Shown here piece by piece: positions 4,362-45,274 of a DNA stretch of 64,000 bases. Below the pieces are notes generated by a model that worked only from the letters and a program-made list of their open reading frames with translations, made no database searches and was not told where the DNA came from. A program made the position numbers and the translations under genes. The DNA is from Bdellovibrionales bacterium (GTDB lineage Bacteria; Bdellovibrionota; UBA1018). The stretch covers positions 13,786-77,785 of the forward strand of contig JAEUWC010000021.1 in assembly GCA_016786465.1 (NCBI GenBank), in the 5' to 3' direction. Each line of letters opens with the position of its first letter. The first letter of the stretch is position 1.

Positions 4362-5024
4362 ATGTTCTTGTTGAACAAAACCCAGAAACTTTTACCTCTT
4401 TTGGTACTTCTAGGAATCGCGCTCCCAGACCGGGTTCGCGCGGACGGACGGATCCTTTGGGAATTCGGCGCAGGGCTTAGCTTTCAGAATACAGCGTCCC
4501 CTTTTTACAACACCACGCAACCGAATTTGGACATGGGAACCGCCATGGTGTCTTCGGTTCTTTTTCAACTGACCCGCCCGTATTCGCGCCTTCGCATTTT
4601 CTTTGGCCCCAGCATTCGATACGGCACGGGGTCAGACGCCACCAACTATTTCGGAATGACGAATGCGCACTTAATGCTGCGTTTTGCTTTGCCCGGACTT
4701 TACCTGGGCGCCGGCTACGCTCCTTGGGTTTATCGGCGCGACAGCACCGCACAGGGGTTGACCGGGTTTCAGAAAGTCGCCGGCGTTTCGGCGTACATGG
4801 CTGAAGCCGGAATCGAAGTCATTGTAAATCCTGAAGCGTCGTTAGGCATCGCTGCCAGCATTCAAGCAGTCAATAACGGCGGACTGCAAAGCCCAAAGTA
4901 CGCGATCGACGGAACGGCGTATGTCAGAATTTATTTTATGGCGACCCGGGACACGGGTTCCGATTCCGAAGACTTCAGCGGTGGCTGGCGCTATCCGTTT
5001 GGTCTTGAAAAGAAGAAATACTGA
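4362..5024 (+). CDS. Hypothetical exported protein (signal peptide), possible outer-membrane protein
   Basis: MFLLNKTQKLLPLLVLLGIALP signal-like N-terminus and a GAAGGG SD. No recognisable catalytic motif. Confidence 0.45.
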   Translation: MFLLNKTQKLLPLLVLLGIALPDRVRADGRILWEFGAGLSFQNTASPFYNTTQPNLDMGTAMVSSVLFQLTRPYSRLRIFFGPSIRYGTGSDATNYFGMTNAHLMLRFALPGLYLGAGYAPWVYRRDSTAQGLTGFQKVAGVSAYMAEAGIEVIVNPEASLGIAASIQAVNNGGLQSPKYAIDGTAYVRIYFMATRDTGSDSEDFSGGWRYPFGLEKKKY

Positions 5025-6773: not shown

Positions 6774-8180
6774 TTAATACGTGATTGCGATGATGTCTGG
6801 ACCCACACCGATCGAAGACGTCACCGCTCCTGATAAAAGCCCTGTACCTAAATCCCGACTAAACACCGTGACCGAAGTTCCCGTTCTGTTGGCAGTCACC
6901 ACCAAATTTCCCAAAGACTGGATTCGAACGTCGTTTGGCCCACCACCCGTCGCCCAGTTTCCAAGCGCCGTCAAAGTCCCGTTGGATGGATTGATTGTAT
7001 AGCCGTAAACACGATTTGCTGAATAGGCCGTGATGTATAAGTGCGACCCACTGGGGTCCGTGATGACGCCTGATCCGCTAGACGCGTTGGCCCCGTGGTT
7101 TTCAACGTCGATTTCAGTCAGTGTGCCGTCACTTGAATTCACTGAAAACGCCACTGCGTACCCAGGATTCGAAGCCCCAGCTGCATAGACGTACTGCCCC
7201 GATGGGTGAACGCAGATTCCGTCTGGGCTTGTGGCCACCGAAGTCGCCAAGGTCTGAGGATTCGATAGCGAAAACGACGGTGAAGTATTCACCACGTACT
7301 TGGTCACGCTTGAACTGCCGTTGTCCGCGCTGAAAACAAAGCGACCCAGTGGATCAGCAGCGACCAAACTGACCAGCGATCCAGCAGTATAGTCCGCAAG
7401 CCAAGTCAGTGCACCCGTCACGCTATCCATGCTGTAAGCTTGAATTCTTCCGGTGGCTTCATAAACGCCAGTAAACGCATAGCCCCCGACCGGGCTCACT
7501 GCGATACCCGCAAGCTGCCGGTTGTTCGCCGTGACTTGATTCACGAAGGTTAGATTTCCGGTCGCGTGATCGATGGAAAACCAGTGGACTCGTTTTCCGG
7601 TACCCGAATTGTTGTAGCAAGCGACGTAGACAAACTGGTTGGTTGGATCCACGTCCACTCCATAGGGGTAATCGCAGGTGGCCAAAAAAGGCGTGGTCGT
7701 TGCCGAAACCGCCTTAGTTCCAGAATCGACGACAAAAGAATAGATCCGATCCGTCGATCCCGCAGTGGCGTAAAGGAATGCGTTGTACTTGAATCCGTTC
7801 ACCAGGGTACCCGTCTGACCATCGGGATTCGTTGCAACCACATCCACCACTGCCGCCCCGTGATACGAAATCACGCAGGTCAAGCTGGTCGAACTGACAA
7901 AGGAAACAGATCCGCAAGTCGATCCACCCAATGAAACCGTGGTCGAAGAAGTAAAATTCGTTCCGGTCAAAGTGACCGTGGCGCCGCCGCGAACACCATA
8001 ACTGGAAGGACTGATATTGGTCACCGTGGGAGCAGGCCCAAGATCTTCGACGACCGTTTTGCGCGTCGGCATAGTCTGGCTCTTAAGATTGCAACCGGTT
8101 GCAAAACTTAAGGTCATCGCCAAGCTCACTAGTGCGAATGAACGACTGAAAAAGATGCGCACACGCCTTCCCTTCCCCAA
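6774..8180 (-). CDS. Lipoprotein with N-terminal IPT/TIG-like domain plus beta-propeller repeats (paralog of 5025..6179)
   Basis: Lipobox ATGC. TVTLTGTNFTSSTTVSLGGSTCGSV is IPT-like, followed by YVAC/YVYAAG/LYITAY propeller blades. Confidence 0.6.
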   Translation of the reverse strand: MGKGRRVRIFFSRSFALVSLAMTLSFATGCNLKSQTMPTRKTVVEDLGPAPTVTNISPSSYGVRGGATVTLTGTNFTSSTTVSLGGSTCGSVSFVSSTSLTCVISYHGAAVVDVVATNPDGQTGTLVNGFKYNAFLYATAGSTDRIYSFVVDSGTKAVSATTTPFLATCDYPYGVDVDPTNQFVYVACYNNSGTGKRVHWFSIDHATGNLTFVNQVTANNRQLAGIAVSPVGGYAFTGVYEATGRIQAYSMDSVTGALTWLADYTAGSLVSLVAADPLGRFVFSADNGSSSVTKYVVNTSPSFSLSNPQTLATSVATSPDGICVHPSGQYVYAAGASNPGYAVAFSVNSSDGTLTEIDVENHGANASSGSGVITDPSGSHLYITAYSANRVYGYTINPSNGTLTALGNWATGGGPNDVRIQSLGNLVVTANRTGTSVTVFSRDLGTGLLSGAVTSSIGVGPDIIAITY

Positions 8181-8295
8181 ACTTCATTTTACATGGGAAT
8201 TGGTGCGCCGACAGCGACAATTTTCAGCAAATATTAAGGTCGGATGTCATTGATTTGACGGAAAAATTCAATGGCACCCGTTTAAAAAATGAAGA

Positions 8296-9876
8296 TTAAG
8301 CGGCTTCTTCGCCCGACCGAGCTAGCTTGCGCTTATCCAATCCGTATTTTTCGACCTTCATGATCAGACCCGCTCTGGAAATTCCAAGCTCTTTTGCAAG
8401 CCGGCTTTTATTCCAGTTGGTCCGCTTCAAGCCTTCACGGATCATCGTCTTTTCAAGTTCTTCCAAAGCATCCTTCAGTTTGCCTGCAACGCGAACGCCC
8501 TGAACCTTTGTTGCTTCACCGAACTCGCGAATTCTTGGCGAAAGAAGTTCGGCTGCGACTTTGTCTTCATCACCCGAAAGAACAATCAGACGTTCGATTT
8601 CGTTCTGAAGTTCGCGGATGTTACCTGGCCATGGATAATCCAGGATCTTTTCCATCGCGCGTTTTGCCAGAATCTTTGGCTTCACCTTTTTTTCCTTACA
8701 ACCTTCGGCGACGAAGTGATCGACCAAGATCGGAATGTCTTCTTTGCGGTTACGCAGCGAAGGCACGACCAAGTTGATGACGTTGATGCGGTAATAAAGA
8801 TCTTCACGGAACTGACCTTGTTCGATCATTTCTTTCAGATCTTTGTTGGTTGCAGCGACCACCCGCACGTCGACTTTGATCTGTCCCGTTCCACCGACAG
8901 GAAGAAGCGTTCCTTCTTGAAGAACGCGAAGCAGCTTCACCTGCATCGTCAGCGTCATATCGCCGATTTCATCCAAAAACAGGGTTCCCTTGTTTGCGGC
9001 TTCGAAAAGACCCTTCTTGTCCTTGATCGCGCCCGTAAACGCGCCCTTCACGTGACCGAAAAGTTCGCTATCCAGCAAGTTTTCGTTGAACGCCGAACAG
9101 TTCACGGTGACGAATGGCAGGTCTTTTCGCGCAGAATTATAGTGAATTGCGCGCGCAATCAATTCCTTACCGGTTCCGTTTTCACCTTGGACCAGAACCG
9201 TCGAATCCGAATTCTTGATCTTGTCCAACATCCCGTAAAGTTCTTGCATCGGCTTCGACTTACCGATCATTTGGTCATAGCGATAGCGATGACCCAATTC
9301 CGTATTCAATGCCGTGATGCGCTCTTCGCGCTTTGAAATTTCCGTGTGGAAAGTCACGATTTCCTGCGCGACCAGATCGACCAGCTCGTAGAAGTACTTG
9401 CGCTCTCCACCGCTCAAAACTTTCAATTTACCCAAGGCAGCTGCGAAAGCTTCGCCGTCCAGCCCCAACGCTTCGATCTTTGCGATCGCTTTTGCACGAG
9501 CGTCAGCAGGGATATCTTTTTCGATGATCGAATAAGCGATCACGCTTCCAAAAAAATCGTTTCCAATGGCGATCCTGGAAACGACGACTTGCTCGGCGCC
9601 GCTCGGACCAGGGATGACCAAATGCGCTTGGTCGCTTCCGAAAATCTTTTCATTCGCTTCTTTCATGAAGTTCAAGATCAGTTCACGGCCCTTTTCTTTT
9701 GGAAGCAAGGTTGCCGAAATAGGGTTCTTGAATTCGCGCTGGCGATCTAATGGATCGAAGTTGCGAACCTGTCCGCGTTCATCGACAAAAAAGATTTCAG
9801 TGCTAAACCACTGAGCCAGAATCTCTTCTAGTTTACGAATGACGTGAATGTGCTTCAGCTCTTCCCAATTGATCAT
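8296..9876 (-). CDS. Sigma-54-dependent transcriptional activator (AAA+ EBP with Fis-type HTH) and a non-receiver N-terminal sensory domain
   Basis: Walker [16 protein letters not shown] (GAFTGA-region), C-terminal [19 protein letters not shown]. The ~200 aa N-terminal domain is not a REC domain. Confidence 0.85.
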
Positions 9877-17197: not shown

Positions 17198-17665
17198 TTA
17201 GACTCTGCGCTTTTTCGGAGGACGGCATCCGTTGTGTGGAATCGGAGTGACATCTTCAATGTAAGTGACCCGTAGACCTACGGAGGAAAGTGCACGAAGT
17301 GCAGATTCACGTCCTGCACCTGGTCCGCTTACGAAAACCTGAACGGAACGCATTCCGTTTTCAACGGCTTTGCGGCCGCAATCTTCGGCGGCGACCTGAG
17401 CAGCGAAAGGAGTGTTCTTACGCGATCCGCGGAACCCTTTGCCACCGGCGCTCGACCAGCAGATGGCGTTGCCCATTGCGTCGGTGATCGTGACGACCGT
17501 GTTATTGAAGGTTGAAAGAACGTATGCGTTTCCGTTGGAAACGCTTTTCTTGCCCTTCTTGATACGCTTGACTGCCGGCGCTGCTGCGCCTTCAGTTCCA
17601 GCGGCAGCGGCTGCTGGAGCTGCTGCGGTTGCTTCTTTTTTTACTTCAGTTTTTTGCTCGCTCAT
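17198..17665 (-). CDS. rpsK: 30S ribosomal protein S11 with Ala-rich N-terminal extension
   Basis: Conserved S11 core ...[28 protein letters not shown]... Confidence 0.9.
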
Positions 17666-24090: not shown

Positions 24091-24798
24091 CTATTTTTTG
24101 AACGGCATTCCCATTGCCGCTAGAACTGCCCGTGCTTGTTCGTTGGTTCTTGCACTGGTCTGGATCGTGATGGTCATTCCGCGAACCTTATCGACCTGGT
24201 CATAGTTAATTTCCGGGAAAATGATCTGTTCACGAATTCCCAGAGAATAGTTTCCACGTCCGTCAAACGACTTGTTGTTCACGCCTTTGAAGTCGCGAAC
24301 GCGAGGCAAAGCAAAGTTCACCAAGCGGTCGTAGAATTCGTACATACGTGCGCGACGAAGAGTCATCGTGACGCCGACTGGGTTGCCTGCGCGAACTTTA
24401 AAGGCAGCGATTGCCTTACGTGCGCGGGTCAAAACCGGTTTCTGTCCAGTGATGGCCATTAAATCGTCCATCGTGTTATCCAAAACCTTTGGATTCGCAA
24501 CGGCGTCTTTCACGGCGCAGTTGATCACGATTTTTTGAATCCGAGGAACTTCCATTGGGTTCTTCAGTCCCAGTTCCTTCATCAATTGAGGAACGACTTT
24601 AGCCTTATAGAAAGTGGCCAAGCGTGGCTCTTTCTCGGGCGAAGCTTTCGTGTCGCCGTCAGCAGCAATTTTCACCGCACCGGTGCCTGCTCCTGCTTTG
24701 CGGCTTTTCTTAGCGCCATCGGGCTTCTTTGCAGCAGCTGCGGCGCCTTCCGGCTTCTTCGCTTCTGCTCCTGCTTCCTTCTTCTTTTCGTCGGCCAT
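24091..24798 (-). CDS. rplE: 50S ribosomal protein L5 with ~55 aa Lys/Ala/Glu-rich N-terminal extension
   Basis: Core ...[33 protein letters not shown]... is L5. No L24 gene lies between it and rplN, and no S14 gene between it and rpsH. Confidence 0.9.
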
Positions 24799-25226: not shown

Positions 25227-25625
25227 TTAGACGTTCGCTTCTGGCGCCTGTCCGTTCTTACGAATGATCGACTTCAGAACCCAGCGCTTGTCCGAGCTCA
25301 TTGGGCGAGATTCAACGATTTCAACCAAGTCGCCGATCTTAGCCGTATTCTTTTCATCGTGCGCTTTGAAACGACGCGATTTCGTGACGTACTTCATGTA
25401 CATGCCGTGACGGACGTTACGATCGATCGTGACCACGATGGTCTTCTTCATTTTGTCGCTGACCACGGTTCCGACTAGGACGCGACGTCCGGCCAAACCG
25501 CGGCTGACTTGCTTCGAGATCACCGCTTTTGCTTCGGTCGCTTCAGGCTTCGCAGCTTTTTTCGGAGCTGCTGCAGCTTTCTTCGGAGCCGATGCTTTCT
25601 TTTCAGTCTTCTTTTCTGGTGCCAT
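25227..25625 (-). CDS. rpsQ: 30S ribosomal protein S17 with Lys/Ala-rich N-terminal extension
   Basis: S17 OB-fold core RRVLVGTVVSDKMKKTIVV. Confidence 0.85.
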   Translation of the reverse strand: MAPEKKTEKKASAPKKAAAAPKKAAKPEATEAKAVISKQVSRGLAGRRVLVGTVVSDKMKKTIVVTIDRNVRHGMYMKYVTKSRRFKAHDEKNTAKIGDLVEIVESRPMSSDKRWVLKSIIRKNGQAPEANV

Positions 25626-30271: not shown

Positions 30272-30516
30272 GACAAGAAGATCAAAGGGCCCTAACCCCG
30301 AAAAAAATCTTCTTTTCTAAAAAAGCATCGATTTGATCGATGTCTCCAACACAGCATCACCGGGAAGCTGCTTAGCTTTCGCCAAAGCCGCCGGATGCTT
30401 TCATGATGAAGTCTTTGAACCCTTCGACTTTCTTTTTGGGAACCCTTCCGGCTCACGCCGACCGGGGCAAAAAGGAGTTTCGAACTGATTCGCAAAAAGC
30501 CGAAATCGCGAAGCGA

Positions 30517-30831
30517 TTACGACTTGATTTCAACATCCACACCCGCAGACAGATCCAGTTTCATCAAAGAATCAACGGTCTGTTGCGTCGGCTCGAGGAT
30601 ATCCAAGAGCCGCTTATGAGTCCGAACTTCGAACTGCTCACGGGACTTCTTGTCGATGTGCGGAGAGCGAAGAACGCAATACTTGTTGATCACAGTTGGC
30701 AATGGGATCGGACCACGAACCGTGGCGCCCGTTCTTTTTGCCGTGTTCACGATTTCCCAAACCGATTGGTCCAGGACGCGGTGATCGAAAGCTTTCAACT
30801 TGATGCGAATTTTGTGTTCTTGCACTGACAT
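30517..30831 (-). CDS. rpsJ: 30S ribosomal protein S10
   Basis: S10 consensus. Strong AAGGAAGGGAAG SD. Confidence 0.9.
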
Positions 30832-30858
30832 GACTTAACTTCCCTTCCTTTTGAATTA

Positions 30859-30897
30859 TTTCTTGAAATCACCCTTAAAACCCTAGTGATTTCAAGA
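30859..30897 (-). promoter_or_regulatory. Perfect 12-bp inverted repeat (leader stem-loop) immediately upstream of the rpsJ SD
   Basis: ttcttgaaatca-N15-tgatttcaagaa. Candidate S10-leader regulatory hairpin. Confidence 0.45.
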
Positions 30898-31045
30898 ACT
30901 TCGAGAGTTCCCCAGACCGAAAAAGGTATCGATTTGGCAATCTTCCCAAAGACTTGAACGTAATAAGTTCGCCGTGTTTACTGTGAATGGCCAAAAACCA
31001 CAAGGGCTTTTCGCAACAAATTCAGACGTATTTTTAAGGGGTTTC

Positions 31046-33184
31046 CTAGACAGACTCGGGTCCGACAGCATCGGGCCGGGGGGGTAAAATCACGCCCGAG
31101 CGCACCTTGATGTCATGGGCAATGGCTGGCGGAACGGGTTCGTAATGGGAAAATTCCATCGTGAAAGTTGCGCGACCCTGCGAAGACGACCTGACCGCCG
31201 TCGAATACCCAAACATCGTCGCCAAAGGCACTTCGGCGTCGACGACCTGCATTCCATGCCTAGGATTCATTCCCAGGATCTTCCCACGTCGGCTGTTCAG
31301 GTCCCCGATCACTCCGCCCACATAATCGTCGGGGCAGATGATTTCACACTTCATCATGGGTTCCAGAATCTGGGGGTCACCCTTCATACCCCCATCGCGA
31401 AATGCCATCGAAGCCGCAATCTTGTAGGCCACTTCGGTTGAATCGGTTTCGCTAAACGACCCACCCAAAAGCGTGCACTTCAGATCGACGACCGGATAAC
31501 CCGCGACGATACCGCCGAGCATCGTTTCTTGAAGGCTTTTTTCAATCGCCGGGATGAATTGTTTCGGAATTGCTTCAGGCGGGCACTTGTTTTCAAACGC
31601 AAAACCTTTGCCGCGTTCCAGGGGTTCCATTTTTACGATCACGTGGCCGAACTGATTTTTCGTGCCGATTTGCCGCATGAATTTCGCTTCAACCTGCGCG
31701 GGTTTGGCGATCGTTTCTTTGTAGGCGACTTGCGGCTGCCCCACGTTTCCATCGACTTTGAATTCGCGCTTCATGCGATCCACGATGATTTCTAGGTGCA
31801 ATTCGCCCATTCCGCTGATCAGCGTCTGGCCGGTTTCTTCATTGATTGAAATTCGGAAAGAGGGATCTTCCATCGCCAGTCGGCTTAGCGCCTGGGCCAA
31901 CTTTTCTTGGTCGGCTTTAGTCTTGGGTTCAATCGCAATGGAAATGACGGGTTCCGGAAATTCCATCTTTTCAAGCAAAATGGGCTTTCCTTCGTTGCAA
32001 AGCGTGTCACCCGTGATGGTGAAGCGAAGTCCTACCGCTGCCGCAATATCGCCCGCGGAAACTTCGTTCACGTCTTCACGTTTATTGGCATGCATCCGAA
32101 GCAGTCGACCGATGCGTTCGCGTTTTCCTTTGCCCGCATTCAAAACGTTGTCGCCGGTTGCGACTTTTCCAGAATAAACCCGGAAAAACACCAATTGCCC
32201 AACGAACGAATCGTTCATCAGCTTGAAAGCCAGCGCTGAAAAAGGTTCTTCTGGGCTTGCAGGCCGGTTCAAAGTTTTTTCTTCGTCCTTCAAATCCTTT
32301 CCTTCGACAGGACGAATATCCAAAGGCGAAGGCAAGTAAGCGACGATTGAATCCAAAAGCGGCTGAACGCCTTTGTTCTTGAAGCTTGCGCCGCAAATCA
32401 CAGGAATCAGCTGAATGGAAATACACCCTTTGCGAAGTGCCGCGCGAATTCGATCAGAAGAAATCGGTTTTTCTTCCAGAAAATCATTCATCAAAGATTC
32501 ATCTTGGTCCGCGACAGCTTCCAAAAGTTTCTGGCGGTATTCCGTTGCCTGATCTTGAAGTTCTTCCGGAATTTCGACAGTCGTCGCGTTGGCACCTTGA
32601 CCGTCTCCCACCCATTTCATCGCCTTCATTTCGATCAGATCGACGACTCCCTGGAAGCTGTCTTCAGCACCCCAAGGAATCTGAAGCGCCACCGGATTCG
32701 CTTTCAGGCGGTCCTTGATCTGCTTCAAAACGTCAAAGAAGTCCGCACCTACGCGGTCCATCTTGTTGACGAAAGCAATCCTGGGAACATGGTACTTGTT
32801 GGCTTGGCGCCAAACGGTTTCGCTTTGGGGTTCAACACCGCCAACCGCGCAGAAAACACCCACAGCACCATCCAACACACGCAGGGAACGTTCGACTTCG
32901 ATGGTGAAGTCGACGTGCCCTGGCGTGTCGATGATGTTGATTTTCTGATCCTTCCAATAACAAGTGGTCGCGGCCGACGTGATCGTGATTCCGCGTTCTT
33001 GTTCTTGAGGCATCCAGTCCATGATGGTTGTGCCTTCATGGACTTCACCCATCTTGTGCGTTTTGCCGGTGTAGAACAGGATCCGCTCGGTCGTCGTGGT
33101 CTTACCCGCGTCGATGTGAGCCATGATCCCGATATTTCGGGTGGCCAGGAGCGCTTGGCGCGCCTGGGGTGTCATTTCTGCCAT
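31046..33184 (-). CDS. fusA: Elongation factor G
   Basis: [26 protein letters not shown]-domain plus domains II-V. Start taken at the internal Met (MAEMTPQ) because the upstream part of the listed ORF overlaps the Hcp-like gene. No tuf follows. Confidence 0.9.
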
Positions 33185-33188
33185 AGAA

Positions 33189-33719
33189 TTAGGGAGTCGT
33201 TGTCCAAGTGTCGGAAGCAACCGTCTTAGACGGTACGTGTTCAATTTCGATGCTCTGGTAAGCAAAGGAAACTTCTTCAGCAAGAACGCTGACACCACCG
33301 CGAACGATAGTCGCCGCTTTTTGAGAAGCGACCCCGGCATTGGTCAACTTGATCGTGTAAGTAATCTGTTCCTGCCCGGTTCGTTGATCAATGGATGTGA
33401 ATTCCAAACTGACCGTCTTTAGGTTTTCTCCGGTCGCCAAAGCCAAGAAGAACTGAGGCGAAGCGGAACCGACGTCACGAATCACGGTCAACGGCTTGTG
33501 CTGGCGGCGGCCGGTTGCCAACCCAGTTTGGCTGTCACGAGGCGAAACAACTTCGTGGGATACTGAGGAAACATTCAAGCGATCTTTGAAAAACTTACTG
33601 GTCGATTCCCCCTTGAACTTTCCCTGGCGAGTTCCTTCAACCGAAAGGTAGATTTCAGCGTTGGCCAATGCAGGTACAAACGCAGTCAGAGCCAAAAGCG
33701 AAAAAACAAACTTCTTCAT
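33189..33719 (-). CDS. Hcp-family (type VI secretion tube protein-like) protein carrying a Sec signal peptide
   Basis: [21 protein letters not shown] signal peptide with AXA cleavage. The mature part aligns by eye with Hcp/EvpC: IYL.V.G...[45 protein letters not shown] (TGxxTGxRxHxPfxfxKxxDxSSPxLxxAxxTGE pattern), [25 protein letters not shown] and SDTW near the C-terminus. Strong GGGGAG SD. Confidence 0.75.
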
Positions 33720-33730
33720 AGATTTCTCCC

Positions 33731-33773
33731 CGTTAAAAATAAAAAACGCCTCAAGCCGTTAGGCCTGAGGCGT
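33731..33773 (-). terminator. Intrinsic terminator/attenuator between rpsG and the Hcp-like gene
   Basis: The minus-strand transcript ACGCCUCAGGCCUAACGGCUUGAGGCGUUUUUUAUUUUU has an ~11-bp stem and a 4-nt loop, followed by a U-run. Confidence 0.65.
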
Positions 33774-33794
33774 CTGTATCAACTTTGACTGAAA

Positions 33795-34265
33795 TTACCA
33801 GCGATAGTGTGCAAACGCTTTGTTTGCATCGGCCATCTTGTGAACGTCTTCACGCTTTTTCATCGCTGAACCGCGACCGTTCGCAGCTTCGATGAATTCG
33901 GCAGCCAGGCGTTCAGCCATCGAGTGTTCAGGGCGACCCGAAGCAGCTTCGATGATCCAGCGAGAAGCCAACGATTGGCGACGAGCAGGCTTCACTTCGA
34001 CAGGAACTTGGTAAGTCGCACCACCGACGCGGCGGGATTTGACTTCCAAAAGTGGCTTCACGTTTTCCAGACCTTTTTTGAAAGTCTTGATGCCTTCGTC
34101 ATTGGTCTTTTCTTGAACCACGTCCATCGCACGGTAGAAGATTCCTTCAGCAACGGCTTTTTTTCCGCTGCGAAGAAGACTGTTGATGAACTTCGCAACG
34201 ACGACGTCGTGGAACTTCGGATCAGGCAGGATTTCACGTTTACGAACAAAACTCTTACGACCCAT
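33795..34265 (-). CDS. rpsG: 30S ribosomal protein S7
   Basis: S7 consensus. Confidence 0.9.
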
Positions 34266-34281
34266 TTGATGATTCCCTTAC

Positions 34282-34689
34282 TTATTTTGCGGCTGGAGCT
34301 GCAGCAGCTGCACCGCCGCCACCTGCGCGTTTTGCGCCGTATTTTGAACGGCTTTGTTTACGATTGGCGACGCCTTGGGTGTCCAAGGTTCCGCGAATGG
34401 TGTGATAACGAACGCCTGGAAGGTCCTTCACCCGGCCACCGCGGATCAGAACGATCGAGTGTTCTTGAAGGTTGTGCCCAATTCCTGGGATGTAAGAAGT
34501 GACTTCGAATCCGTTCGAAAGACGGACGCGGCAAACTTTGCGAAGCGCTGAATTCGGCTTCTTCGGAGTCGTCGTATAAACACGGGTGCAAACTCCGCGG
34601 CGCTGAGGACAGCTTTCCAACGCTGGAGACTTGGTCTTCCAGAGTTTGTTGGAGCGCCCTTGGCGAATAAGCTGGTTAATCGTAGGCAT
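34282..34689 (-). CDS. rpsL: 30S ribosomal protein S12 with Gly/Ala-rich C-terminal tail
   Basis: [12 protein letters not shown] consensus, followed by ...[18 protein letters not shown]. Confidence 0.9.
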
Positions 34690-34725
34690 GAAACACTAAT
34701 TCCTTTCCTGTTCGGTAGGCCGTGG

Positions 34726-34754
34726 AAAATAGACGAGCGCCATACACCGGTCAA
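34726..34754 (-). promoter_or_regulatory. Sigma-70 promoter for the str operon (TTGACC-N17-TATTTT on the minus strand)
   Basis: Read as the reverse complement: TTGACCggtgtatggcgctcgtcTATTTT, about 35 nt upstream of the rpsL SD. Confidence 0.5.
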
Positions 34755-34777
34755 GGGAATCCTTTCACGCAGATAGA

Positions 34778-34813
34778 CAAAAAAAGCCCCTGGATCCACC
34801 GAACCCAGGGGCT
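34778..34813 (-). terminator. Intrinsic terminator downstream of lon
   Basis: agcccctgg-N11-ccaggggct stem followed by a U7 run on the minus-strand transcript. Confidence 0.7.
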
Positions 34814-34844
34814 TTAGTTGACTATTTACCTTTGAATCGCGCGA

Positions 34845-37370
34845 TTAGTGGCGAACTGCTCCGCTGGTACCGCCTGTTTTGCTCTTTTTCGAGCTTTCGG
34901 CGGCAAATACCAGGGCTTCCGGCCGAATCGCGAAATCGTCTGATCCTTTACGGACCAAGAAGGTATCGGGATTTTCCAGTTCCAATGCCAAGCGCAAGAC
35001 TTGATCGACGTGATCGACCGGAATGATCTTCATCCCAGAAATGATGTCTTTTGGGATTTTCTTCATGTCCGGAACGTTGCCTTTTGGAATCAAGACCGTC
35101 TTGATGTTCCCAATTTTTGCAGCCAGAAGCTTTTCCTTCAGGCCGCCAATCGGAAGCACACGTCCACGCAAAGTGATTTCGCCGGTCATCGCTACATCGC
35201 GCTTCACGGGAATCTTCAAAAGCGCGCTGGTGATCGCCGTGCACATCGTGATGCCTGCCGAAGGTCCGTCCTTAGGAACAGCGCCTTCTGGCACGTGCAA
35301 GTGGATGTCGATATTCTGGTAAAAGTCCTTGTCCAGACCCATCAGTTCAGCTCGCGAACGAACATAGCTCATCGCGGTCTGAGCAGATTCTTGCATGACA
35401 TCGCCCAGTTTTCCGGTGATCTTCACGCCACCTTTGCCCGACACCGTGCTGACTTCGATCTGCAAAAGATCGCCGCCGACTTCGGTGTAAGCCAAACCAT
35501 TGGTCAAGCCGATTTCGTTTTTTTCTTCGGCCTTTCCTTGGGTGTAGCGTGGTGGTCCCAGCATTTCTTCCAGGTCTTCGGTCGTGACTTGAATCGCTTC
35601 AAGCGATGCCGACTTAGTCGCCGTGCGAAGATCGACGATCTTCTTAGCGACTTTACGGCAAACGGTTGCAACCATTCTTTCCAGGTTACGCACACCCGCT
35701 TCGCGAGTGTAGTTACGAATCAGGAAGTTCACTGCTTCTTCGTCCATGACGAAGTCGCCTTCCTTCAATCCGTGCTGTTCCATTTGCTTAGTCAGCAAGT
35801 ACTTGCGAACGATGTTGTACTTTTCGATTTCGGTGTAGCCCGTGATCGTAATCACTTCCATCCGGTCCAACAAAGGACGTGGGATGTTGTGAAGCGAGTT
35901 CGCCGTCAGAACGAACATGACCTTGGATAGGTCATAGTCGACTTCCATGTAGTGGTCGCCGAAGCTATTGTTCTGTTCTGGGTCCAAGACTTCCAAAAGC
36001 GCCGATGATGGGTCGCCGCGGAAATCCATGCTCATCTTGTCGACTTCGTCCAACAAGAAGACAGGGTTCGAAGAACCGGCCTTCTTCAGAGACTGAATGA
36101 TCTTTCCAGGCAATGCACCGACATAGGTACGGCGGTGACCGCGGATTTCGGCTTCGTCGCGAACCCCACCCAGCGAGCAGCGAACAAATTTCTTGTTCAA
36201 CGACTTGGCGATGGATTTCGCAAGCGAGGTCTTACCCACCCCCGGAGGTCCAGCAAAGCAAAGGATCTGACCTTTCGAATTCTGGGTCAAAGTGCGAACG
36301 GCCAGATATTCCAAGATCCGTTCTTTCACTTCTTCCAGTCCGTAGTGATCTTCTTCCAGGGTTTCTTCGGCGACGACCAGGTCGTGACGATCGGTCGTGT
36401 ATTCACCCCATGGAAGCGAAATGATCCAGTCGATGTAGTTGCGGACGACGGTCGCTTCTGCGGACATCGGCGACATCATCTTCAACTTCTTCAATTCCTT
36501 GTTGGCCTTTTCTTTGGCTTCTTTGCTCATCGCTTTTGCGCGAATCTGCTTTTCCAAGGCTTGAAGTTCGGCTTTGAATTCGTCTTTTTCGCCCAATTCC
36601 TTCTGAATCGCCTGCATCTGTTCGTTCAGGTAGTATTCCTTTTGCGAACGTTCCATCTGCTTCTTCACGCGCGTACGAATACGGCGTTCGACTTGAAGGA
36701 TCTCGATTTCTCCCTGCATCAGCTGAAGCAGTTTTTCCAAACGCTTCATCGGATCGGCAGTTTCAAGAATGTCCTGCTTGTCTTCCAGCTTCAGATTCAA
36801 ATGCGCGACGATCAAGTCGGCCAAGCGTGAAGGTTCTTCCAAAGTATTCACGCTCATCAGCATTTCCGGAGGAATGCGCTTGTTGAGCTTGACGTAGTTT
36901 TCGAAGGTCGCCTTCAGCGAACGAACCATGGCTTCAAGTTCGACGGACCCAGAAGAAACTTCTGGAACTTCTTCGACAACAGCTTCGATCATCCGATCGG
37001 TTTCTTGATAGCTAAGAATCTTGGCGCGGCGTTTTCCTTCGATCAGGACCTTCACCGTGTTGTCGGGAAGGCGAAGAATCTGAAGAATCTGCCCCAGTGT
37101 TCCGATTTCGAAAATGTCCTTTTCACCCGGACTGACCGTGGTTGCTTGTCTTTGAGCGACCAAGAAAAGTTCGGTCTTTTTAGCAACGCATTCTTCCAGC
37201 GCATTGATGGACTTTTCTCGACCAACGAAAAGCGGAACCACCATATGCGGAAAGATGATCGCATCTCGAAGAGGAAGTAACGGTACCTTGATGCTTCCTG
37301 CGGGTTGACCTGACGTCTGAGACTGACTGCTTGATTTTTTGGATTCTTTGGACACGGGAGGAGCCTCCAT
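34845..37370 (-). CDS. lon: ATP-dependent Lon protease (start probably the GTG at 37355, which has a GGAGG SD)
   Basis: LON N-domain, AAA+ GPPGVGKTS, and the protease serine motif [11 protein letters not shown]. Confidence 0.9.
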
Positions 37371-44221: not shown

Positions 44222-45274
44222 TCAGCTGACTTTCTGAAATTCAACTGACGGTTCGATCACAGCTAAGATTCCAGTGTTTCCGGGAATCAACTTTTTTGAA
44301 ACCACCCAAACTTCACCGCCCTTTCCGGCTACCGCTTCGGAAAGATCGTCATACAAGTCATCGTCACGGGTATCCCGCTGATTCCCATGGAATATGATCT
44401 TCCCACTTTTTCGATTCAGCTTTCCAAAGAACCTTTGGTCCTTCGATACGACCAAGGTCTTGATCTGACCTTGGACAGCTAGATTCGCAATTTTTTCAAT
44501 GTCGGTTTCGGTTCGAAATCCGTTCCATTTCAATTCCGTCAGCAACTGGTTCATCAACAAAACTTCGCGGTTTCGCTTTTGACGATGCAACCAATCCTTG
44601 AATCGTAACTCGAGCTGGCCCAGCGCCAACTTAGATATAAAGCCGGAAAGAGTTTCTTCGATGATATTGGGGTGGAGTTTTGCTTTTTTTGCGAACCGAA
44701 TCGCGTTTTCGTCGCCAGCTAGTACGACACGGGTCTGTCGATCCCTGATTCCGGTTTCAAGCATTTGCTTCACTTCATAGAAAAATTCAGAATTCTTACG
44801 AGTTTTCATGGGCGCAATCACTGTGTCATGGCAAACCAGCTGACGATCGCTGCCGAATGCAAGCGTTGCTCCACTTTCATGGAACCAAAGCACTGCCGTT
44901 CTTTGCAGATTCTGCTGATAAGCCAGTAAAGGCTTGATGTGGAAGCTATCTGCAACGACAACAAATGAACCAGGATCTTCTGTCATTTGTACCCACCAAA
45001 ACGAATCGCGAGTCCGAAATACTGCCAATCCCGCTAAATCTGGAAGGGGGTCTTTGATCTTGGCAGTCACATTAAAAATAGGCTCAAGATAGGTTTGCAG
45101 CACAGGTCCATCGAGTTCTTCTTTAAGGAGTGCCCGTGCTTGCTTGATCAGGTCAAAAAGCCGTTCGCGATTGGAAGTACTGGGTTTAGACCAATCCCAA
45201 CTGAGATACAGCGAGGTCGCCGGAAGCTGGTCAGATTTAATCGGCACTACAAAATTTTCGATAACAGGTTTCAT
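44222..45274 (-). CDS. Hypothetical protein; C-terminus resembles the eRF1/Pelota (Dom34) domain-3 fold
   Basis: The C-terminal ...AVAGKGGEVWVVSKKLIPGNTGILAVIE echoes the Pelota/eRF1 C-terminal GA.V.IIS....G..L..LGGIAAILRY pattern. No other motif recognised. Confidence 0.45.
   Translation of the reverse strand: MKPVIENFVVPIKSDQLPATSLYLSWDWSKPSTSNRERLFDLIKQARALLKEELDGPVLQTYLEPIFNVTAKIKDPLPDLAGLAVFRTRDSFWWVQMTEDPGSFVVVADSFHIKPLLAYQQNLQRTAVLWFHESGATLAFGSDRQLVCHDTVIAPMKTRKNSEFFYEVKQMLETGIRDRQTRVVLAGDENAIRFAKKAKLHPNIIEETLSGFISKLALGQLELRFKDWLHRQKRNREVLLMNQLLTELKWNGFRTETDIEKIANLAVQGQIKTLVVSKDQRFFGKLNRKSGKIIFHGNQRDTRDDDLYDDLSEAVAGKGGEVWVVSKKLIPGNTGILAVIEPSVEFQKVS

Follow-up and report, generated by a model that had tools for sequence, protein, structure and literature searches.

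A predicted Sec-exported Hcp-fold protein encoded between rpsG and fusA in a Bdellovibrionales bacterium

Hcp (TssD), the protein that forms the tube of a type VI secretion system (T6SS), is regarded as a hallmark of that process. In annotation pipelines, any protein of the Pfam family PF05638 receives the name T6SS tube protein. Hcp shares an ancestral fold and a ring or tube architecture with the tail-tube proteins of phages and the tube proteins of extracellular contractile injection systems, and evolved or extended forms ("Hcp-ET") reportedly carry C-terminal toxin domains. Here, we analyzed an Hcp-like gene of a Bdellovibrionales bacterium in a 64,000-nucleotide (nt) stretch of contig JAEUWC010000021.1 (GCA_016786465.1), which we refer to as the window and whose numbering is used throughout. 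The gene, an open reading frame (ORF) of 176 amino acids (aa), lies between rpsG and fusA within the str operon, and its product carries a Sec-type leader in front of an Hcp domain. We consider it reasonably probable that this is a Sec-exported Hcp-fold protein that works outside the context of type VI secretion and is coexpressed with elongation factor G (EF-G), the product of fusA.

The protein resembles canonical Hcp/TssD (3he1, 5mxn, and 6a2v) in its Pfam and TIGRFAM family membership and in a shared β-barrel-plus-helix fold (TM score of 0.78 to 0.87). It differs in its 21-residue cleavable-type Sec leader, in its location in the str operon, and in the lack of T6SS genes in the 64 kb; a protein exported to the periplasm would be unusable by a tube that assembles in the cytoplasm. 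Like Hcp-ET, it combines an Hcp domain with an added segment that would alter how the protein acts, but here the addition is a putative N-terminal export signal (in relatives, a signal together with chitin-binding-like or collagen-like modules) and not a C-terminal toxin delivered by a T6SS. Phage and contractile-injection tube proteins, in contrast, assemble in the cytoplasm and have adjacent sheath and baseplate genes, none of which occur near the hcp-like gene. For the operon itself, earlier predictions place a terminator or attenuator in the rpsG-fusA interval of streptococci, and RNA elements have been reported upstream of fusA in Pelagibacter (Naville & Gautheret 2010, PMC2965389). The streptococcal prediction is a precedent for an internal stop signal within this operon, and the locus studied here has a terminator-type hairpin at the same position. 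Unlike the streptococcal and Pelagibacter elements, however, it has a protein-coding gene standing between the terminator and fusA, and it has no Rfam match.

The Hcp-like protein and its N-terminal leader

The hcp-like ORF (33189..33719, minus strand; stop codon TAA at 33189-33191) is on the same strand as rpsG and fusA and interrupts the gene order rpsL-rpsG-fusA. Its product matched Pfam T6SS_HCP (PF05638) at 93.8 bits (E = 1.3e-26; cutoff, 23.5) over the complete profile (positions 1 to 129 of 129; protein residues 24 to 161) and NCBIfam TIGR03344 (TssD) at 99.4 bits (E = 2e-28; cutoff, 58.9; residues 21 to 174). The best sequence matches among solved structures were P. aeruginosa Hcp3 (3he1; E = 5.7e-15) and V. 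cholerae Hcp (5mxn). An AlphaFold2 (AF2) model based on a 14-sequence alignment had a mean pLDDT of 87.8 and a pTM of 0.78, with low confidence only at residues 1 to 20 and at the C-terminal end, and its strands and one helix (residues 87 to 96) follow the Hcp pattern. When this model was compared with the PDB using Foldseek, each of the 50 matches listed was either an Hcp structure or an engineered fusion of Hcp; the best had TM scores of 0.78 to 0.87, and E values went down to 4.6e-15. The protein also conserves the hairpin motif SPRD..(S/T)G..TG(R/K)RQHKP and the C-terminal DxW that are common to Hcp. The strong conservation of the hairpin motif bears indirectly on a possible assembly into hexameric rings. 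Collectively, these data establish the 176-aa protein as a member of the Hcp family by sequence and fold. The predicted mature Hcp/TssD-fold domain comprises residues 22 to 176 (33192..33656, minus strand). An identical protein is recorded at NCBI as MBL7716094.1, for a Bdellovibrionales bacterium, under the title "type VI secretion system tube protein Hcp."

The first 21 codons (33657..33719, minus strand) lie outside both profile matches, and the corresponding residues have pLDDT values of 52 to 58 in the AF2 model. By reading, these residues have the n-, h-, and c-region layout of a Sec/signal peptidase I signal peptide: MKK, then a hydrophobic core of 15 residues (mean hydropathy of 2.33 in the best 10-residue window), and ANA followed by Glu. 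Positions −3 and −1 are Ala, position +1 is Glu, and Cys is absent. The pair of lysines, the hydrophobic core, the A-x-A, and the absence of Cys suggest the design of a Sec/signal peptidase I substrate and not that of a lipoprotein, in agreement with the pattern in which a positively charged n-region and an h-region of 10 to 15 hydrophobic residues are followed by small residues at positions −3 and −1, without a lipobox Cys. T6SS tube proteins have no signal peptide, and the Sec-type leader sets the protein apart from them in this respect. Alignment to homologs with a canonical start (MALNAYL.. and MAYEFYV..) showed that the leader is a clean N-terminal addition. The ortholog on a second contig, L001 (discussed below), has a leader of other sequence and the same design, MKAFLSLVVTALTFGTSVAQA followed by D (ending AQA-D).

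The first ATG is preceded at a 6-nt spacing by a strong Shine-Dalgarno sequence, GGGGAG (33726..33731, minus strand; read from the sequence), and L001 has AGGGGA at the same place. A TTG at codon 18 would give a canonical-looking N terminus, M-ANAEIYL (compare canonical MALNAYL), and if this codon is the true start, the protein could be an ordinary cytoplasmic T6SS tube subunit whose apparent signal peptide is a translated leader or an annotation artifact and whose T6SS lies elsewhere in the genome. Such a subunit would suit the name given by NCBI and the best matches, which are canonical tube proteins (Hcp3 and V. cholerae Hcp). It would also suit the frequent separation of hcp genes from their T6SS cluster, and codon 18 is TTG or GTG, followed by Ala, in both orthologs. 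Yet the ribosome-binding site stands before the first ATG and none precedes codon 18, and the 17 upstream codons are open and hydrophobic in an ortholog at a synonymous divergence (dS) of 1.66. Furthermore, such leaders occur in 102 of the 155 closest relatives, the 64 kb holds no T6SS gene, and relatives are found on an archaeal-type contig and in Chloroflexota. An internal start is thus unlikely in our assessment.

No T6SS family was found among the ten largest unassigned ORFs of the window, and neither the window nor 7.6 kb of L001 contained T6SS core genes (TssA-M, VgrG, or PAAR). The initial annotation of this locus had described an interrupted rpsL-rpsG-fusA unit, a GGGGAG Shine-Dalgarno sequence, a Sec-type signal peptide, and an Hcp-like mature region. 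The ORF and its ribosome-binding site are indeed where it placed them, the leader reads as the predicted signal peptide, and both the profile searches and the AlphaFold/Foldseek comparison agree with its assignment to Hcp.

The rpsG terminator and the fusA junction

The 75 nt from the rpsG stop codon to the start of the hcp-like ORF read UAAUUUCAGUCAAAGUUGAUACAG-ACGCCUCAGGCC-UAAC-GGCUUGAGGCGU-UUUUUUAUUUUU-AAC-GGGGAG-AAAUCU-AUG and include an intrinsic-terminator-like hairpin with a U-run (33735..33775, minus strand), which was found by the terminator scan, by folding, and by the inverted-repeat search (pair I6). The scan placed the stem at 33775..33744 on the minus strand, with 14 pairs (8 of them GC), a 4-nt loop, and the T-rich tail TTTATTTTTA. 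The arms lie at 33762-33773 and 33746-33757, the loop lies at 33758-33761, and the U-run UUUUUUAUUUUU lies at 33746..33735, giving a stem of 12 to 14 bp. Across 4.8 kb, the scan returned 12 sites against 8.1 expected by chance, and among these 12, only this hairpin and the one following lon had at least 14 pairs. RNA folding gave 14 consecutive pairs in the hairpin, and the centroid of the whole 111-nt fragment was at −28.7 kcal/mol (z = −3.7 versus shuffles). Thus, as the initial annotation had noted, a strong hairpin and U-run follow rpsG; the arrangement, a GC-rich stem-loop directly before a U-run on the transcribed strand, is that of a Rho-independent terminator or attenuator. Between the two genomes, the hairpin is kept by paired changes (..CAGGCC/GGCUUG.. 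versus ..CAAGCU/AGUUUG..). An Rfam search of 30300-35000 gave subthreshold noise only, and we identified no alternative antiterminator fold or S7-binding element here.

A hairpin and T-run also follow rpsG in relatives that have no hcp at this position (L007, L008, L009, L010, L011, and L020), indicating that the terminator predates the insertion and was not carried in by it. The initial annotation was therefore right in placing the insertion behind an intrinsic terminator, but this terminator is an ancestral feature of the operon. In L020, a Bacteriovoracaceae metagenome-assembled genome (MAG; CALFZE010000019.1), the spacer from the rpsG terminator to fusA is GC rich and about 549 nt long (4469-5017 of that locus), folds at −253 kcal/mol over 589 nt, and contains no convincing ORF. 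A signal-peptide-like ORF in this spacer was rejected: in-frame reading of the terminator T-run accounts for its hydrophobic stretch, and past the terminator there is no start codon.

The U-run and the hcp ATG are separated by 15 nt. The promoter scan found nothing between the terminator and this ATG and nothing inside the 3' end of hcp that could serve fusA; candidates picked by eye, such as CCGACA-17-TAATTC, were rejected because their position does not suit the ATG and the coding sequence accounts for them. At the other end of the gene, the stop codon TAA is followed by a 4-nt spacer (TTCT, 33185..33188, minus strand; UUCU in the mRNA) and then by the ATG of fusA (33182-33184), so that the ORF ends 4 nt before fusA, as initially annotated. 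The junction TCCCTAATTC(T/C)ATGGCAGAAAT (in RNA, UCCCUAAUUC(U/C)AUGGCAGAAAU) is conserved in L001. No terminator or promoter that would separate hcp from fusA was found, and the position of hcp, on the same strand between rpsG and fusA, leaves no room for an independent transcription unit. The fusA gene (31046..33184, minus strand) encodes a 712-aa protein that begins MAEMTPQ and is 94% identical to that of the L001 gene, which has EF-G Pfam domains. In a survey of ribosome-binding sites for 17 ribosomal, EF-G, and RpoA genes of the window, a purine-rich site was present 5 to 12 nt upstream of every gene except fusA (CGACUCCCUAAUUCU-AUG) and rpsD, and the 25 nt before the fusA ATG contain no Shine-Dalgarno-like purine run.

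Because there is no promoter room before the hcp ATG and no gap before fusA, hcp is most likely carried on the fusA mRNA. In addition, since fusA lacks a Shine-Dalgarno sequence and starts 4 nt past the hcp stop codon, part of EF-G translation probably comes from ribosomes that have just finished hcp. One shared mRNA, with some EF-G initiation by ribosomes terminating 4 nt upstream, would be the most economical reading of this arrangement. The initial annotation suggested that expression might follow growth rate by way of the str promoter; the strong terminator between this promoter and hcp would argue for at most attenuated read-through.

In the model that we infer from these features, the Sec pathway would carry the 176-aa precursor over the inner membrane, and signal peptidase I would probably cut after Ala21 (ANA-E). 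The mature β-barrel of about 155 aa would then act in the periplasm or outside the cell, independently of a T6SS, where it is predicted most likely to form Hcp-type rings or an oligomeric scaffold and not the tube of a cytoplasmic T6SS. The source of the shared hcp-fusA mRNA would be either an unrecognized promoter or transcripts that read through the rpsG terminator, which would then act as an attenuator. If hcp and fusA are coupled, at least in part, at the level of translation, the exported protein would be made constitutively and at a level comparable to that of a translation factor.

A second genome and the origin of the insertion

One relative with 60% identity (P0002) was found in the protein database, and it is encoded on contig L001 (Logan SRR29476912). 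L001 has the identical gene order rpsL-rpsG-hcp-fusA-rpsJ and the same 4-nt gap before fusA. The hcp proteins of the window and L001 are 60 to 62% identical, whereas the flanking proteins are 94 to 100% identical. By the Nei-Gojobori method, the hcp pair has a nonsynonymous divergence (dN) of 0.35, a dS of 1.66, and a dN/dS of 0.21, compared to dN/dS values of 0.03 to 0.05 for rpsL, rpsG, and fusA. Thus, hcp is under purifying selection, yet its dN has advanced roughly ten times faster than that of its neighbors. The GC content of hcp (0.50) and its GC3 match those of the surrounding genes, and we found no flanking repeats and no composition break at hcp; nothing marks a recent mobile insertion.

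The low identity of the hcp proteins relative to their flanks, the conservation of the 4-nt junction and of TCCCTAATTC, and the lack of a Shine-Dalgarno sequence at fusA would all be expected if the product mattered little. The ORF would then be domesticated foreign DNA with drifting coding content, kept as a translated cistron that feeds ribosomes to fusA or as a spacer behind the terminator. A dN/dS of 0.21, however, indicates that selection acts on the protein; the Hcp core motifs and the design of the putative signal peptide are all retained, and relatives express fusA without any such ORF. We therefore regard such a role for the ORF as very unlikely.

The same fast divergence is what would be expected of a protein that faces other organisms. 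An exported Hcp-like protein could serve in interbacterial interaction, either as a periplasmic decoy for the Hcp-dependent effectors of T6SS attackers or as a predation factor delivered to prey. Hcp rings bind effectors in their lumen, the leader predicts export, and the lineage is Bdellovibrionales, all of which would suit such a role. Set against this, no effector, immunity, or predation genes are adjacent to hcp, homologs are found in many nonpredatory phyla, and a constitutive linkage to fusA fits a housekeeping role in the envelope at least equally well. We judge a role in attack or defense to be improbable and, like the internal start and the ribosome-feeding cistron, less likely than an exported Hcp-fold protein that is coexpressed with EF-G outside type VI secretion.

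To place the insertion in its lineage, we fetched 80 genome loci with S7 as a probe and determined where S12, S7, Hcp, and EF-G lie on each of them. The nearest species representatives (L007-L012; Bdellovibrionales, Bacteriovoracaceae, or Oligoflexia MAGs with S7 proteins 67 to 82% identical) have no Hcp gene between rpsG and fusA, and on those loci that include fusA, 67 to 171 nt separate the two genes. The insertion is thus limited to the lineage of the window and L001. A scan of genome contigs with the hcp-like protein returned no relative, and a scan of metagenome contigs with an alignment of the two orthologs returned only distant relatives (37 to 45% identity) and no further str-operon case. 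In all, searches covering 5.8 billion proteins and two contig collections turned up this arrangement in two genomes. The synteny implied by the initial annotation thus extends to L001 and is absent from L007-L012, making it a narrow lineage feature. These comparisons show that hcp entered between an existing rpsG terminator and the fusA start in a common ancestor of the two Bdellovibrionales genomes, where the hcp-like gene, with its own ribosome-binding site, replaced the former fusA leader.

The remaining genes of the locus are also on the minus strand and begin with lon (34845..37370), followed by a terminator-like hairpin (34815..34783). Between this terminator and rpsL is a sigma-70-like promoter candidate, TTGACC-17-TATTTT (34726..34754), which is a consensus match only, at 9 of 12 positions. 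Next come rpsL (34282..34689; S12 of 135 aa with a Gly/Ala-rich C-terminal tail; TIGR00981 rpsL_bact, 232.8 bits) and rpsG (33795..34265; S7 of 156 aa, 97% identical to the L001 Ribosomal_S7 gene). Beyond hcp and fusA lies rpsJ (30517..30831; S10), the first gene of the S10 cluster, in the same order as in L001, and then the S10/spc/alpha clusters. These ribosomal clusters, lon, clpX, and clpP make up essentially all of the window. The tuf gene is absent after fusA, where a 214-nt spacer (30832-31045) leads directly to rpsJ, an order that is identical in L001, and Rfam gave nothing significant in this spacer. Low-complexity tails rich in Ala, Lys, and Pro are found on ribosomal proteins of the window, including at the C terminus of S12, and the ribosomal-cluster ORFs at 17198-17665, 24091-24798, and 25227-25625 (minus strand) have N-terminal extensions of 30 to 40 residues rich in Ala, Lys, Pro, and Glu. 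A 350-aa protein at 44222-45274 (minus strand) has weak, subthreshold matches to baeRF families 3 and 7 (bacterial archaeo-eukaryotic release-factor-like).

Leader-bearing Hcp homologs and their significance

Searched exhaustively with phmmer, a set of 1.84 billion cluster representatives yielded 3203 relatives of the hcp-like protein at E ≤ 1e-3 and 1253 at E ≤ 1e-10. Among the closest homologs, we aligned 155 single-domain proteins (150 to 300 aa) and found a hydrophobic N-terminal extension in 102 of them; 37 have the canonical short N terminus, and 16 have other extensions. These leaders usually terminate with A-x-A, a few residues ahead of the first strand. The nearest neighbor shares the leader state in 106 of 139 cases, compared to 61% by chance, so the trait is only loosely clustered. 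Ferruginibacter (Chitinophagaceae) and Symbiobacteriaceae are among the named relatives with a leader, while Chloroflexota and Segetibacter are among those without one. The initial annotation had raised the possibility of an undescribed family of exported Hcp-like proteins. Going by the predicted leaders in the census, this appears to be so, and no description of a Sec-exported Hcp family was found in the literature searched (full text).

We found no T6SS families within 8 to 10 kb at nine further leader-bearing sites (ten loci: L002, L003/L004, L005, L087, L088, L089, L090, L098, and L099). At one of them, L087, the uS12 is of the archaeal/eukaryotic type (TIGR00982, 187.6 bits; cutoff, 140.2), and the contig is therefore most likely archaeal. 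On L087 (ENA ERZ25039499 contig_47615, AT rich; 7284-9382) and on L088, S12 is directly preceded, on its upstream side, by a 182-aa signal-bearing Hcp homolog and by an Hcp-domain protein of 329 aa that has a lipobox-like ITAC. Here, independently of the window, an exported Hcp gene again lies next to a gene of the str operon, which may be a coincidence. L098 (P0255) and L099 (P0228) share a neighborhood of a ketoacyl synthase, an SMC/AAA_23 protein, and a HATPase_c protein, with Ser/Thr kinases near L099, which suggests that the signal-bearing Hcp homolog has a stable chromosomal position in that lineage too.

Some relatives have further modules between the leader and the Hcp domain: a chitin-binding-like module (CPxWVGQxAAYPVGT..) in P0006 and P0037 and collagen-like Gly-Pro-Pro repeats in P0020, P0127, P0147, and P0171. 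The position of these modules after the leader points to a role outside the cytoplasm. Separately, the search returned giant proteins encoded outside the window (P0023, at 3375 aa, and P0024, P0025, P0027, P0030, P0031, and P0033), most of them with signal peptides. They contain 2 to 16 regex-matched copies (up to 26 stretches by HMMER) of a unit of about 37 to 45 aa, HE(V/I)xSPRDAASG(L/M)(P/A)TGKR(M/Q)HKP, which is the Hcp β-hairpin motif, and their matches to Pfam T6SS_HCP are partial only. The Hcp hairpin thus seems to exist as a stand-alone repeat module.

Several points weigh against the reading of a Sec-exported, T6SS-independent protein that is coexpressed with EF-G. The leader was called by inspection and a hydrophobicity heuristic, and the start sites of metagenomic homologs are the choices of gene callers. 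The T6SS search covered the 64-kb window, and a T6SS could be encoded elsewhere in the genome. Leaderless close relatives (L006, L091, and L092), which served as a positive control and were expected in T6SS clusters, are equally far from T6SS genes. An orphan context is therefore not diagnostic, and the case for T6SS independence is built from the leader and taxonomy rather than from gene neighborhood; the statement in the initial annotation that no T6SS genes are nearby holds for the window and fails as a diagnostic sign. With regard to expression, the codon adaptation of hcp (0.69) is lower than that of every ribosomal gene (0.71 to 0.82) and ordinary for the window, and so does not support very high expression. 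The fusA genes of relatives without the insert also often lack a Shine-Dalgarno sequence, so EF-G may start independently on an unstructured leader, and no conserved structure masking the fusA start was found. Finally, so strong a hairpin may end most transcripts, which would require an unrecognized promoter for hcp and fusA.

Beyond this locus, we tentatively propose, as a possibility that we hold with less than even confidence, that Sec-exported Hcp-fold proteins constitute a large, unrecognized, T6SS-independent family with members in several phyla of bacteria and in at least one archaeon. In such a family, the tail-tube fold would be reused outside the cytoplasm as a ring, tube, or scaffold, the giant tandem-hairpin proteins would be included, and one Bdellovibrionales member would be wired to EF-G and made in step with the translation apparatus. 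If it is true that many environmental Hcp homologs are Sec substrates without a T6SS, their annotations would be functionally wrong, and surveys that count hcp genes to estimate T6SS occurrence would be affected. This implication at the level of the family would surprise T6SS specialists. The locus itself is a rare case in which a nontranslation gene has become fixed within a gene string that is among the most conserved in bacteria, and the hcp-fusA arrangement offers a natural test of terminator read-through and of the translational coupling of fusA. For the family, the proposal, if it holds, would mean that the tail-tube fold has a new use outside the cytoplasm, and the module fusions and hairpin-repeat giants hint at structural or adhesive roles.

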